A stretch of 64,000 nucleotides of DNA from Candidatus Bilamarchaeaceae archaeon. Lineage in GTDB: Archaea > Micrarchaeota > Micrarchaeia > Anstonellales > Bilamarchaeaceae. The stretch lies in assembly GCA_038851325.1 (NCBI GenBank), contig JAWCKZ010000002.1, positions 26,902 through 90,901 of the forward strand, given 5' to 3'. Below are positions 1-3,363 of this stretch, piece by piece; positions within the stretch are counted from its first letter, which is position 1, and the number at the start of each line of letters is the position of its first letter. The notes under the pieces were generated by a model. It was not told the DNA's origin, did not search any database, and saw nothing but the letters and a program-made list of their open reading frames with translations. Made by a program: the position numbers and the translations under genes.

Positions 1-124
1 TATCGTTTGTAGGGCTGGCGAGCATTTTCACTTAACGGCTCCAGCATAAAAGAAGTTCCGCCGAAGGCGAGAGCGCCGCAGGGCGTGGCAAAATTACGAA
101 GTAATTTTGAGTCGCGAGGGGTCG

Positions 125-685
125 CTACTCTAATTTTCTCTTTACCCACTCAACTGCTTTTTGGACATAATATTCTTTATCACTTTCAACATTTTTGATA
201 ATCTCTCTAATTTCATTTGTCAAACTTTTATCTTTCGTAAAATTAATTAATAGAACAATAGCAAATCTTCTTTCCCAGAGATTTTTAGATTTGACCAATT
301 TTTTAGAAATTCCAAATATTTCTTTTTGTTTTGTCTTTGTAATTCCTTTTATTCCTTGGGTTGCTAAGGTATCACAAGCAGCCCAGTCGACAATTTCCTT
401 CGCAAATTTTTCGATAAGCTGTAAAGTCTTTTCTGGATCTTTTTTACAAAGTTTCCCAAGTAATTTTGTTGCTAAAAGTTTTTCCTCAAATGACTTAGAT
501 TCCCATAGCTCTTCAACAAGGCCAAATCCGGCTGTTTTGTATTTTATAGCAAGTGAATTTAGTTCAGGAATTTTGACGCCATAAACTTTTTGAGAAGTTG
601 GAATAAATTTTTGAAAACTTGCTTTGACTTTTTCATTTGCTTTTGTTTGTAATATCTTTTTGATTTCTAGTAGCTCTTTTGGCAT
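125..685 (-). CDS. DNA alkylation repair protein (AlkD-like HEAT repeat); cassette gene
   Basis: YGVKIPEL, W..CD (DWAACD), W.RR (LWERRFAIV) and YVQKAVEW motifs of the AlkD family; very AT-rich. Confidence 0.85.
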   Translation of the reverse strand: MPKELLEIKKILQTKANEKVKASFQKFIPTSQKVYGVKIPELNSLAIKYKTAGFGLVEELWESKSFEEKLLATKLLGKLCKKDPEKTLQLIEKFAKEIVDWAACDTLATQGIKGITKTKQKEIFGISKKLVKSKNLWERRFAIVLLINFTKDKSLTNEIREIIKNVESDKEYYVQKAVEWVKRKLE

Positions 686-746
686 AATAGTCTAGTTGAA
701 GTGTCAGTATTTAATTATTTTTCCATTTGCGACCTCGAGCGATTAC

Positions 747-842
747 GCCTAACGTATGCACTTATACGCAATTTTCAGAAGAAAAAATTGGGGTGGAACC
801 GAGCGACAGAGCGAAGGCAGAACCGTATAAGCGCTGTTAGCA
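747..842. mobile_element. attC-like recombination hairpin 1
   Basis: GCCTAAC (747-753), arm GCACTTATACG (758-768), complementary arm CGTATAAGCGC (824-834), GTTAGCA (836-842). Confidence 0.65.
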
Positions 843-928
843 GATCAAAGTGCCCCGAGTGGGGCGTAGCGGAACGAGAGCGCAGCGTGGTTCGACGAAC
901 GAAGTGAGGAGAAAGTCCCGAGCCAGCC

Positions 929-1264
929 CTATGCAAGTTTTAGACCATTTTTAACCTTTCTTTCTGGAATGGCCAAAACAACATCTCCATTATCCAAAAC
1001 AAAACCAGTTGTAAGAACTTCGGAAATAAAATTTCCAATTTGTTTTGGCGGAAAATTAGTAACGCAAATAACTTGCTTACCTAACAATTCTTCCTTTTTA
1101 TACAAACTTGTAATTTGAGCACTTGATTTTTTGGTTCCATATTTACCAAAATCTATCAGTAATTTATATGCTGGTTTTTTAGCTTCTGGGAAGTCGTCTA
1201 CTTTGATAATTGTTCCAACTCTTATATCTACTTTTTCAAAATCGTCCCAAGTTATTTGTGTCAT
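929..1264 (-). CDS. csaA: CsaA / tRNA-binding protein (OB fold); cassette gene
   Basis: [38 protein letters not shown] motifs; start placed at MTQITW (alternative 1270). Confidence 0.9.
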
Positions 1265-1317
1265 AAACATTAATAAAATCGATTAAGTTATAAATCTTGG
1301 GGCTGGCGAGGGATTGC

Positions 1318-1408
1318 ACATAACATATGCGATTAAGAAAGTTTTTCGACGATGGAGCAAAATTTAGGGGGGAATTCGCAGGATTTTTCCTCTTAATCGC
1401 TGTTAGGC
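1318..1408. mobile_element. attC-like recombination hairpin 2
   Basis: ACATAAC (1318-1324), arm GCGATTAAGA (1329-1338), perfect complement TCTTAATCGC (1391-1400), GTTAGGC (1402-1408) matching GTTRRRY. Confidence 0.7.
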
Positions 1409-1419
1409 GGCACAAGCAA

Positions 1420-2757
1420 TTACAGCATCCTCTCGAGATCCTTCGAATCAAAAAGCAGGACATCAGGCTCTTTGAATTTTTCTTTAAAGCTTTTGGCAAA
1501 TATCGCATAAATCTGCTTTTCACTTTTCCATTGAACTAATGCAGCCTTTTCTTTTAGTTCAGCCAAGATAGTCCTAGCATCAACTCTATTCTGCCATTTG
1601 CACTCTGCGAATAAAATTTCTTTATTCCTTTCATTTAAGGCCACAATATCTATCTCTTTGTCTTTATGCCACCATTTTCCTATTTTCGTTGGCTTGAATA
1701 TTTTTGCCTCTAGTATGAATTCTTTGCATATATTCTCAAAAGCCTTGCCTACATAGGCATTAAGTTCTTGCTTAATTGAACCGAAAACTTCTTTCTGCAA
1801 GCCTTGCTCTATTGCAGACTTGTTTTTGAAAATAAACTTGAACCAAAAGCTATAGAAATTGTCTTTAATCTTGTATCTTGTTGTTTTTGCTTTTAACTTT
1901 CTAGCTATTACTGGAATTTCTTTTTCAATAAGACCTACTCTTTCCAAAACCGATAAATATTTCGGGAGTTTATAACTTTGTATTTTGCTAACCTCTGCTA
2001 TTTCGACAAATTTTATGTATCCGTCTGCTATAGCTGAAAGTATAGAAGTATATGGTGCAGGGGTTCTAAACTCCTCAAACAGAAGATTAAGAGGTTCATT
2101 GTATAAAAAAGATGTCTTATCCAAAATCTTCTTTTTTATGTTTTCATCTATACTTAATTTTGGGTCGAATTCCTCCAGATATCGCGGGACCCCCCCTAGA
2201 ATCGAATAGGCCTCTACAAGCTGTTCAATTTTATAATCTGGAAAGAAATCTTTGATAAACTTAAACTTCAGCGGCAAAATGTGCATCTCCATAGTCTTTC
2301 TGCCATAAAGAGCAGAGCCGTAGCCCATTGCAATCTTGTATATCGCGGATATTATCGAGCCACAGAGAATCAACTTTTTATCAGTACCTTTTAGCTTTTC
2401 CCACCATCTCTGCGCAATCGTGGGCCATGCCCTATTGACTTGGTAAAGATATTGGAATTCATCTATTATAATTATTTTGTGCCTGCTTTTGTAGAGAAAT
2501 TCAAAAAAGTCATCCCATGTGTTAAATTTTACAAATTCTTCCATGACCTGCTTTGAGAGGACATCAAGTATGTTCTCTGATATATCCGCCAGCAAGTAGA
2601 GCGCATCCGTCTTTTTTGCAAATTCGACCAGCAGTCTGCTCTTTCCGACTCTCCGCCTGCCATAAATCAGGGCTAGCTCTGCTCTCTTTGATCTTGCTAG
2701 CTCTAACAACCTGCCAAGCTCCTCAGCCCTGTTAATAAACATTATCATAATAATCAT
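1420..2757 (-). CDS. Archaeal AAA+ ATPase with wHTH and DUF234 / restriction-endonuclease-like C-terminus
   Basis: FINRAEEL, YGRRRVGKS Walker A, IIDEFQYL Walker B, GGVPRYL, EIDIVA...ECKW. Confidence 0.9.
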   Translation of the reverse strand: MIIMIMFINRAEELGRLLELARSKRAELALIYGRRRVGKSRLLVEFAKKTDALYLLADISENILDVLSKQVMEEFVKFNTWDDFFEFLYKSRHKIIIIDEFQYLYQVNRAWPTIAQRWWEKLKGTDKKLILCGSIISAIYKIAMGYGSALYGRKTMEMHILPLKFKFIKDFFPDYKIEQLVEAYSILGGVPRYLEEFDPKLSIDENIKKKILDKTSFLYNEPLNLLFEEFRTPAPYTSILSAIADGYIKFVEIAEVSKIQSYKLPKYLSVLERVGLIEKEIPVIARKLKAKTTRYKIKDNFYSFWFKFIFKNKSAIEQGLQKEVFGSIKQELNAYVGKAFENICKEFILEAKIFKPTKIGKWWHKDKEIDIVALNERNKEILFAECKWQNRVDARTILAELKEKAALVQWKSEKQIYAIFAKSFKEKFKEPDVLLFDSKDLERML

Positions 2758-2973
2758 TATTATAATCTTGTATTTAAAACTTTTGGTCTGGTGTTGTAAT
2801 TGTTTCTCCTGAATTAATGTTACCTCGCTGACTTACTTTCATTTTATTCAGCTTCTTCATAATCTGAAGAGTCCTTCCGAATTTATCAAGGTAACCTTAT
2901 TTCGGGATAATACAATATAAATTTTTATTGCGGGGCGGAGTGAATTACGCCTCACAACTATTAAGCGAGATTT

Positions 2974-3363
2974 TCATTGCGAAACAGCCCTTTTTGAAAG
3001 CTCATCCGCCTCTTCGTTTTGCTCGCGCGAGATATGCTCAACTTTCACATTCATGCCGAACATAAGGCCGTCCACCTTTGCCTTCAACGGCTTGAGCTTT
3101 CTGTCCTTCACCTTATACTCTCCACTCATCTGGCGGGCAAGCAGCTGACTGTCCGTCCTTATGTGAACCTCTTTTTCTCTCATTTTTTTCGCAATTTCAA
3201 GTGCTCTGATGAGCGCAAGATACTCTGCTATGTTATTAGTTCCCTCACCGACATATTCGCTTATTTCAAGTATCTTCTTTTTGTCCTTGTAGACAACCAG
3301 GCCTATGCCCATAGGCCCAGGATTTCCAAAGCATGCGCCATCTGTATAGATTATAAGCGCCAT
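2974..3363 (-). CDS. rnhA: Ribonuclease HI
   Basis: YTDGACFGNPG, TNNIAEY, TDSQL, REQNEEADELS. Confidence 0.95.
   Translation of the reverse strand: MALIIYTDGACFGNPGPMGIGLVVYKDKKKILEISEYVGEGTNNIAEYLALIRALEIAKKMREKEVHIRTDSQLLARQMSGEYKVKDRKLKPLKAKVDGLMFGMNVKVEHISREQNEEADELSKRAVSQ

Follow-up and report, generated by a model that had tools for sequence, protein, structure and literature searches.

Gene-flanking inverted repeats in an archaeal cassette array as probable halves of a split stem in attC-like recombination sites

Complementarity across the cassette genes

The stretch analysed here, called the window in what follows, comprises 64,000 nucleotides from the genome (0.9 Mb in 18 contigs) of Candidatus Bilamarchaeaceae archaeon, and it begins right after a ten-N scaffold gap in contig C2. 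The first 3 kb of the window, which contain three minus-strand genes with GC-rich stretches between them in a surrounding AT-rich region, are an integron-like array of gene cassettes, and the element found between the genes is an attC-like site. The inverted repeats (arms) that seem to clamp cassette genes in this array are probably the two halves of a long stem of the cassette's own hairpin recombination site, which would be split on insertion.

A new reading of the window sequence confirmed the two arm pairs reported in the first-pass annotation (111-125 with 729-743, and 915-929 with 1300-1314), both of which consist of 5 bp, a tandem GA/GA mismatch and 8 bp, and contain two G·T pairs in the case of cassette 1 and one in the case of cassette 2. 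In both cassettes, the left arm shares its last C with the stop codon (CTA at 125-127 and 929-931), and the GA of the right arms (20-21, 737-738 and 1308-1309) is followed in all three cases by 11 nt and then by TAAC (33-36, 750-753 and 1321-1324).

In the model favoured here, a cassette read on the plus strand would start with the C of TAAC, the hairpin core and GTTA, followed by five variable nucleotides, a spacer of ~40-75 nt, A-G-T with the left arm, and the gene on either strand, and would end with the right arm and A-T-T, five variable nucleotides and TAA. In the free circle, TAA would be joined to C, and the plus strand from the right arm through the left arm would make up one contiguous folded site, with TAAC paired to GTTA, the five-nucleotide stretches paired to each other and the spacer bulged out as a branch. 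Beyond this branch, ATT would pair with AGT (A-T, G·T, T-A), after which the arms would contribute 10-16 bp more. Recombination at TAA/C with a dif-like platform or with another cassette site would then cut through the stem, and the gene would look clamped because the crossover splits this stem and the outer 5′ half lands on the far side of the gene.

The evidence for such pairing comes from 31 non-redundant complete cassettes, other genomes and metagenomes included, which were picked by their hairpin core and not by their arms as stretches between same-strand sites 150-4000 nt apart, leaving out exact duplicates and those containing N. Duplex energies (DNA parameters) of the opening 170 nt with the 30 nt that precede ATT were calculated in all 31 x 31 combinations. 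The median energy was -14.6 kcal/mol for cognate ends vs -8.9 kcal/mol for the 930 non-cognate ones (Mann-Whitney p = 8e-13), with 14/31 cognate pairs falling below the 1st percentile of the non-cognate values and 20/31 below the 5th, and the cognate partner ranked first among the 31 in 14 rows and 19 columns. This test superseded an initial one on 15 sites, limited to the upstream flank, whose result was mixed (~7 sites with a good partner). Chance as the source of the arm pairing is ruled out by the cognate and non-cognate energies of the 31 cassettes.

The arms themselves follow a constant layout. The left arm opens with GT, usually 43-76 nt past GTTA (once at 5 nt, in L054), and the right arm closes with AT, immediately before T/G, 4 nt and TAAC. 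Among the 20 arms that could be anchored in register, the base of the helix is A-T in 20/20, G·T in 19/20 and T-A in 19/20, and the ungapped helix averages 13 bp, while arm sequences are otherwise unrelated between cassettes. Comparison of related arm pairs revealed compensatory double changes (two between L131 and L023, three between L137 and L182, and two between window cassette 2 and L140), which therefore argue for selection for pairing. The proposal that arms are cassette-specific and covary thus holds well beyond the window, as cognate ends pair better and related pairs change on both sides. On the other hand, two traits noted in the window cassettes turned out not to be general: tandem GA/GA occurs in some arm families only (window cassettes 1 and 2, L177, L179 and, twice, L140), next to related purine loops such as GGA/GGA in L055 and GGAA/GAA in L023, and the overlap with the stop codon is not general across cassettes.

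In the case of the cassette cut by the scaffold gap (cassette 0), an upstream arm of the form (A/G)ATGC-GA-GCCAGCCC had been predicted, for which no convincing match was found in the assembly (the best, C1:75347, has 2 mismatches); the ten N lie directly left of the window, where this partner arm would be. A homologous cassette in L140 carries GTTGC-GA-GCCAGCC opposite GGCTGGC-GA-GCAAT, in agreement with the predicted arm. The same locus (L140:313-460) contains a 147-nt 'cassette' free of any open reading frame (ORF) between two hairpin cores, with a spacer and GA/GA arms (GTTTTTTCC-GA-G / C-GA-GGAAAAAAT).

Hairpin cores, crossover position and folding strand

The hairpin core between the genes shows a common layout, formed by TAAC, R-TAT, GCG with the L box, two small terminal hairpins around a conserved ATTTGGG, the complementary L box with CGC, a T, and GTTA. 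Further copies are present on contigs C11 and C8 of the same genome, and a pattern scan of 60 relatives detected the core family in one other genome (G047). Exact-pattern scans of public genomes and metagenomes, filtered for L-box pairing, gave 110 distinct sites; ~28 sites from the 120 genome-contig loci were real after the L-box check and the removal of copies of the window sites. The records bearing these sites are titled Woesearchaeota, Aenigmatarchaeota, Iainarchaeum, Methanocellales and Patescibacteria, among others. The 70 of the 110 distinct sites that aligned well were used for covariation: TAAC and GTTA are invariant in 70/70, and the L-box helix has 11 bp, with 6/11 pairs changed on both sides, 98.8% of the cells paired, and a covariation score reached by 0/500 shuffles. 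The core is thus a structured element. A covariance model of it gave 152 matches in 100 sources, including more second sites than nhmmer could find, and no Rfam family matches the core (E up to 1, positions 1-3200). Among the 70 aligned sites, the consensus structure has a 3-nt bulge (TAT) that separates the R box from the L box on the 5′ arm, and extrahelical bases are absent from both the 3′ arm and the L box.

The complementarity across the gene is continuous with this core. Among the 31 cassettes, the five nucleotides before TAAC form on average 3.97/5 Watson-Crick pairs with the five nucleotides after GTTA on the other side of the gene, vs 2.07/5 (n=27) with the GTTA flank of the adjacent hairpin and 2.20 for random combinations (Wilcoxon p = 1.2e-4), and the fifth of these pairs covaries. 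In the circular form, the R box of a site is therefore completed by the start of the same cassette. Since the complementarity runs on through the five nucleotides next to TAAC and GTTA, the arms can be regarded as an extension of the R-box pairing.

Sequence breakpoints place the crossover at the same spot. They were taken from 94 site pairs with cores at least 95% identical, which are not independent, since several of the loci are copies of each other. In 17/94 pairs, identity ends within 8 nt to the left of the C of TAAC and extends rightwards for 43-397 nt, another 9 pairs remain identical on that side up to where the shorter locus ends, and the reverse direction was found in 0 pairs. This rightward identity passes through the spacer and often into the arm and the gene. 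Moreover, in 163 pairs with similar cores, the left arm is 28% identical, which is the chance level, vs 71% for the right spacer. As in an R box, AAC is paired with GTT and the breakpoints fall at TAAC (which strand is cleaved is something we infer). In the classical relation of the 59-base element, the first bases of a cassette belong with its own inverse core site, and here that relation is extended by 13-20 bp and a branch.

This pairing had been described as lying outside the standard attC model, a statement that is not borne out as worded: according to PMC5027507 and PMC3518468, the cassette start forms part of the R box of the cassette's own attC in the circle, and in the array the bases beyond the crossover belong to the neighbouring cassette, the bottom strand being cleaved between A and C of 5′-RYYYAAC-3′ (PMC5027507). 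The observation is best read as general for this family of sites and as an extension of the standard integron model, not as something apart from it. Folding of simulated junctions is in line with this. Among the eight cassettes that fit a strict upstream TAAC motif, the circular junction is the more stable form in 7/8 (mean -44.2 kcal/mol, vs -33.4 in the context of the array; gain of 6-25), and the same 7 circular junctions are more stable than all 7 non-cognate chimeras; the remaining one, L132, behaves in the opposite way.

Between GTTA and the left arm, spacers fall into sequence families common to distant loci (window 76-112 and 848-916). The spacer at 76-110 has copies 89-100% identical in L001, L233, L081, L207, L204 and L158, in most of which the identity stops at position 112, and 84-88% identical copies in L205 and L236, while the spacer of cassette 2 (840-914) has copies in L137, L099, L148, L141, L179 and L235. 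One spacer family (L038, L032, L074, L080) contains (G)ATTGAATTTTAGTGCAAC, similar to the ATTG, 4 nt and TAAC of the site itself, and this motif may be a second, degenerate recombinase-binding element.

Regarding the strand that folds, mismatches inside the arms, apart from the G·T at their base, are 9 G·T vs 2 C·A and 7 G·A/A·G vs 0 C·T, when read on the plus strand, and the pair next to TAAC is G·T in 40/70 sites. Motifs of the form C-GNA-G number 468 on the plus strand vs 20 on the minus strand; three-nucleotide GNA loops closed by C-G are very stable DNA mini-hairpins. The cores also fold better on the plus strand (-16.3 vs -14.7 kcal/mol, n=141, p = 3e-22), and so do the spacers (p = 2e-14). 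Strand-specific wobbles and C-GNA-G loops point to a plus strand that would fold as single-stranded DNA (ssDNA). The longest ORFs of the 31 cassettes lie on the minus strand in 19 cases and on the plus strand in 12, with the same arm geometry (all three window ORFs are minus); this use of both strands makes ssDNA a better fit than RNA and disfavours a function in the mRNA. Of the earlier suggestion that the plus strand folds either as ssDNA or as RNA, the choice of strand is thus borne out by the stabilising features and the first of the two molecules is the better candidate. We also rejected a kink-turn or a bulge-helix-bulge RNA motif as an explanation, since a bulge of the type needed is absent and the strand with the motif is antisense to the genes.

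A candidate recombinase and the competing explanations

The window contains no recombinase gene beside its dif-like site (2944-2971), and it is contig C11 (L001) that links the two. In this contig, a hairpin site and the sequence ATTACGCCTAA CAACTA TTAAGCGAGAT enclose one cassette, whose arms are AGTTCAGAATTCGGC / GCCGAATTCTGAATT with a second helix of 10 bp, and next comes the gene of a 269-aa tyrosine recombinase, which reads away from the cassette; in the 0.9-Mb genome, only one other tyrosine recombinase gene was found. The best family of this protein is NF040815 XerA_Arch (208.9 bits, below the cut-off of 220), and it aligns nearly full length with the solved XerA structures 5hxy and 4a8e. 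With the TIGR02249 model it scores 179 bits in two stretches (cut-off 265), and its 16 residues 176-191 stand where IntI4 (2a3v) has 61 (179-239), so that the additional domain specific to IntI is not present. The second tyrosine recombinase gene (317 aa; L005, C1:99255-100208) adjoins a 384-aa ATPase-like gene far from the hairpin sites, and is probably part of a different integrated element.

Relatives or fragments of the XerA-like gene occur in 11/159 site-bearing loci (393 kb in all), 8 of them on the same strand and downstream of the array. An 11-6-11 site is present in seven loci (an eighth regular-expression match, L034, looks like chance), and the XerA-like gene follows it in L152, L189 and L049, as it does on C11. 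Four loci (L001, L152, L189 and the window) have an identical second arm and centre in this site, the remaining three loci differ only slightly, and the first arm belongs to the inserted cassette and matches the second one inversely at 4-8/11 positions; no empty platform site was found among the seven loci. The dif site of Pyrococcus abyssi is given as ATTGGATATAA TCGGCC TTATATCTAAA (PMC2958812). The 11 nt formed by ATT, five nucleotides and TAA resemble its arm ATTGGATATAA, and a cleavage after TAA would match the boundary between arm and centre. The XerA-type recombinase encoded beside the dif-like site is likely to be the enzyme. On C11 and in L152 (1488-1535), the platform site is a perfect 12-bp palindrome with a loop of 7-9 nt (ACTATTAAGCGA ... 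TCGCTTAATAGT), which could form a minimal hairpin similar to the L box of the cassette sites; the second half of this palindrome is not conserved in the window (2944-2990).

Together with the split stem, these data allow a broader proposal, which we put forward as a tentative one: in DPANN archaea and bacteria of the candidate phyla radiation (CPR), a XerA-type recombinase free of the integron-specific domain may run integron-like cassettes at a dif-like site, through a branched and folded single-stranded site whose Xer arm would be completed by the outer helix, as a living intermediate between Xer/dif systems and integrons. Within the split-stem model itself, the ATT, five nucleotides and TAA would constitute the binding arm of the recombinase, and the folded circle would pair all 11 nt, TAA with TTA, the five nucleotides with their partner, and ATT with AGT beyond the spacer branch. 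The outer helix would hold the last three base pairs of this binding arm together across the branch, and free cassettes would in this way present a complete site, in contrast with the sites of an array, which, with their mismatched flanks, would present an incomplete one.

Several observations weigh against the idea of a stem divided by insertion. Eleven of the 31 cassettes (11/31) show no arm pairing beyond the 5th percentile of the non-cognate pairs, and the five-nucleotide stretches of window cassette 2 pair at 1/5 positions only. In the window's own genome, arm partners were found for three cassettes only (window cassettes 1 and 2, and the one on C11), and none was found for C2:26738-26754, window 2930-2945, C8:560 and C8:3853 when up to 3-4 mismatches were allowed. 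Unrelated genes are flanked by identical arms in 7/14 near-identical arm pairs (the arm pair of cassette 1, for instance, also flanks an unrelated methyltransferase-like gene in L177, together with the same five-nucleotide stretch), and the identity between sites can end exactly between the A and the GT of the left arm (A/GT; L169 vs L109, and L247 vs L171 vs L183). Recombination at TAA/C does not explain either of these mosaics, which may reflect homologous exchange or the mode of cassette building. The energy advantage of the plus strand is small in the arms themselves (-17.7 vs -17.0 kcal/mol, n=20, p = 0.015), and the unpaired TAT bulge lies on the 5′ arm, unlike the extrahelical bases of the canonical attC, described on the 3′ arm (PMC5027507). 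An action of the XerA-like protein on the hairpin sites would be deduced from gene neighbourhood only. Finally, neither excised circles nor deletion joints were detected in the contigs of four sequencing runs, which cannot show rare forms and so carry no weight either way; a lone joint that 'goes back' in these contigs (1409 to 76) is explained by a locus of the C11 type.

A further point of this kind is that the same base pairs could form within the array, with the gene looped out, as was originally proposed. In such a case, arms of a single-stranded plus strand would pair, bring the flanking hairpin sites together and favour precise excision. The pairs involved are identical to those of the split stem and equal the pairing of the circular form in another topology, and the sequence cannot separate the two states. 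The strand bias also suits ssDNA in the array, and the binding arm of the right-hand TAA/C site would be paired in full, more than its own hairpin flank allows (2.07/5). We consider this explanation rather unlikely, however, given that it supplies one complete site when excision needs two, that its L box would need halves of two different and often unlike cores (attC2 vs attC3 in the window), that loops of 0.4-1.6 kb would have to close on 10-16 bp, and that the data call for nothing beyond the known circular intermediate. A quite improbable reading regards the arms as a functionless scar of cassette formation, which would mark the junction of the gene with a pre-formed hairpin module. It would account for the ends of module identity at A/GT, for identical arms around unrelated genes and for the stop codons that abut or overlap the arm end in many cassettes, whereas the double compensatory changes in three pairs (2, 3 and 2) indicate selection for pairing, and the conserved G·T at the arm base would be left unexplained.

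The pairing could also work at the RNA level, if the 5′ and 3′ ends of the cassette transcript were joined for its stability, processing or termination. The minus-strand genes of the three window cassettes do have arms in their 5′ leader and at their stop codon, and tandem G·A is also stable in RNA. Nevertheless, the stabilising features are on the strand antisense to the window genes, arm geometry stays the same whatever the orientation of the ORF (19 vs 12 of 31), the 147-nt cassette of L140 is armed in spite of having no ORF, the three-nucleotide GNA loop with a closing C-G pair is a motif of DNA hairpins, and Rfam gave no match, all of which makes such a function very improbable. Lastly, it is hardly credible that the arms are the terminal inverted repeats of a separate transposable unit (arm-gene-arm) inserting between hairpin modules: the conserved GT...AT bounds, where the variable part begins exactly, would fit such a unit, but the same gene in different neighbourhoods breaks on the left at TAAC and not at the arm, arms differ between cassettes in a way that does not suit recognition by one transposase, and no transposase travels with the units.

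Known systems and further features of the locus

The array shares with integrons its single-gene cassettes and its imperfect hairpins with a TAAC...GTTA R box, a covarying L box and a variable terminal structure, as well as a crossover that would occur at AA/C, a cassette start that belongs to its own site in the circle, a strand-biased folding with G·T pairs, and a tyrosine recombinase gene at one end that reads away from the array. The paired arms of the L box, conserved in structure rather than in sequence, are also those expected of an integron. Compared with descriptions of the canonical attC, the sites of this family differ in the extra, cassette-specific helix of 10-16 bp outside the R box, in the conserved spacer of 40-75 nt on one strand, in the AGT/ATT that closes the outer helix, and in a core sequence that is much more conserved. 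The neighbouring recombinase differs from that of integrons in lacking the integron-specific domain, and cassette ORFs do not share a single orientation downstream of a platform promoter (19 minus and 12 plus of 31). Archaeal integrons were described by Ghaly et al. 2022 (PMC9668308) as clusters of attC-type sites in archaeal metagenome-assembled genomes, DPANN included, mostly with no integrase nearby, the archaeal IntIs carrying the IntI-specific domain. The present loci resemble them in including Woesearchaeota, Aenigmatarchaeota and Iainarchaeum records, as well as Patescibacteria, and neither gene-flanking complementarity nor a spacer module nor XerA-type neighbours are mentioned in the Results of that paper.

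The resemblance to Xer/dif systems lies in the 11-6-11 platform, in the ATT, five nucleotides and TAA close to the P. abyssi dif arm, and in the nearest relatives of the recombinase, which are XerA proteins; unlike those systems, these arrays consist of many small cassettes, each with its own hairpin. Elements of the CTX-phage type integrate at dif as folded single strands, a behaviour that may resemble that of these cassettes. XerCD are the only other tyrosine recombinases said in PMC5027507 to use both single- and double-stranded substrates. The dif modules of Acinetobacter plasmids are likewise single genes bounded by Xer-type sites and thought to be mobile as modules (PMC7399989), whereas the cassette sites of the present arrays are folded hairpins in direct orientation with cassette-specific outer helices. 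The sites of those dif modules are ordinary double-stranded 28-bp sites in alternating orientation. A search of titles and abstracts, with subscription journals outside its scope, found no description of gene-flanking complementarity beyond the R box or of hairpin cassettes linked to XerA.

What appears to be new is the presence of an outer helix, a spacer branch and a conserved G·T foot in an attC-like site, together with the link of this site to a recombinase of the XerA type and to a dif-like platform. The site family bears on two questions of integron biology, the origin of the cassettes and the way in which a free cassette folds its own site, as the outer helix makes both ends of each cassette recognisable, the crossover can be placed by sequence comparison, and the seams between site module, arms and gene are exposed. 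The model predicts that free cassettes would be better substrates than array sites. If the XerA-like recombinase is indeed the enzyme, recombination of folded sites would need no integron-specific domain, a point that touches on the evolution of integron integrases from Xer proteins, the subject of PMC4792948. Moreover, if a branched site run by XerA were true, the A/GT and AT/T seams would mark the joins between gene and module, which would make cassette formation testable.

Table 1. Coordinates of the array features in the window
Feature	Position	Strand	Remarks
Right arm of cassette 0, GGGCTGGC-GA-GCATT	12..26	+	Cassette cut by scaffold gap, partner beyond gap; L140 homologue has both arms
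Xer-arm-like stretch TTTTCACTTAAC, ending in TAA before C	25..36	+	Degenerate hairpin core (37-75) follows
Conserved spacer module, including hairpin AAAATTAC-GAA-GTAATTTT	76..110	+	Final A precedes GT
Left arm of cassette 1, GTCGC-GA-GGGGTCGC (whole, GTCGCGAGGGGTCGC)	111..125	+	
Cassette 1 gene, 186 aa, DNA_alkylation family (PF08713)	125..685	-	Stop is CTA at 125-127
Right arm of cassette 1, GCGACCTC-GA-GCGAT (whole, GCGACCTCGAGCGAT)	729..743	+	
11-nt Xer-arm-like stretch ATTACGCCTAA, then C	742..753	+	Putative crossover between 752 and 753
Hairpin core 'attC2': TAAC, 3-nt bulge, L box, two terminal hairpins, CGCT-GTTA	750..839	+	61 bits, E 3e-12
GCAGA (five nt beside GTTA) and conserved spacer of cassette 2	840..914	+	Ends at A914
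Left arm of cassette 2, GTCCC-GA-GCCAGCCC (whole, GTCCCGAGCCAGCCC)	915..929	+	
Cassette 2 gene, 113 aa, tRNA_bind domain (PF01588)	929..1270	-	Stop is CTA at 929-931
Right arm of cassette 2, GGGCTGGC-GA-GGGAT (whole, GGGCTGGCGAGGGAT)	1300..1314	+	
Xer-arm-like stretch ATTGCACATAA, then C	1313..1324	+	Putative crossover before the C
Hairpin core 'attC3'	1321..1405	+	66.6 bits; near-identical copy just left of scaffold gap
Innermost cassette gene, 445 aa (ATPase_2 and DUF234)	1420..2757	-	
dif-like 11-6-11 site, ATTACGCCTCA CAACTA TTAAGCGAGAT	2944..2971	+	Inner end of array (attI-like)

The innermost cassette has no spacer and no detectable outer arms, and the five nucleotides beside its boxes pair at 4/5 positions (GGCGG at 1406-1410 with ACGCC at 2947-2951). 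At the opposite end of the array, the hairpin core that should follow TTCACTTAAC is missing or degenerate (33-75), while the spacer module at 76-110 is intact; because the core at 37-75 is degenerate, cassettes 0 and 1 are probably fused and no longer separable.

Directly left of the ten-N gap, C2:26738-26891 is a second and near-identical copy of window 1312-1450, in which ATTGCACATAAC is followed by a hairpin core that differs at 1 nt, by GTTAGGCGG and by the 3′ end of the ATPase gene. The copy comes after a methylase-like gene and a different arm-like stretch, and reflects either heterogeneity of the population, with arrays that contain or lack cassettes 0-2, or an assembly join at the repeat. 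ARAGORN detected no tRNA in the 6.9 kb left of the window. A further array segment is found in L002 (C8:1-4100). Its hairpin core occupies C8:3915-4015, and it also contains a long ORF on the minus strand and an apparent insertion sequence with a transposase-like ORF; the segment, whose arms are partnerless, ends at another ATTACGCCTAAC at C8:560.

In sequencing run X1, a contig of cassette 1 (window 83-753) has a depth of 30.8 and 14 differences from the window, compared with depths of 9.3 for the contig of cassette 2 (737-1323) and 8.5 for that of the ATPase gene (1599-3200), and from these depths the cassette 1 variant is commoner in the community than its neighbours in this array. Both arms of this variant are changed (G121A in the left one, and T to C plus an inserted T in the right one), and the changes are non-compensating.

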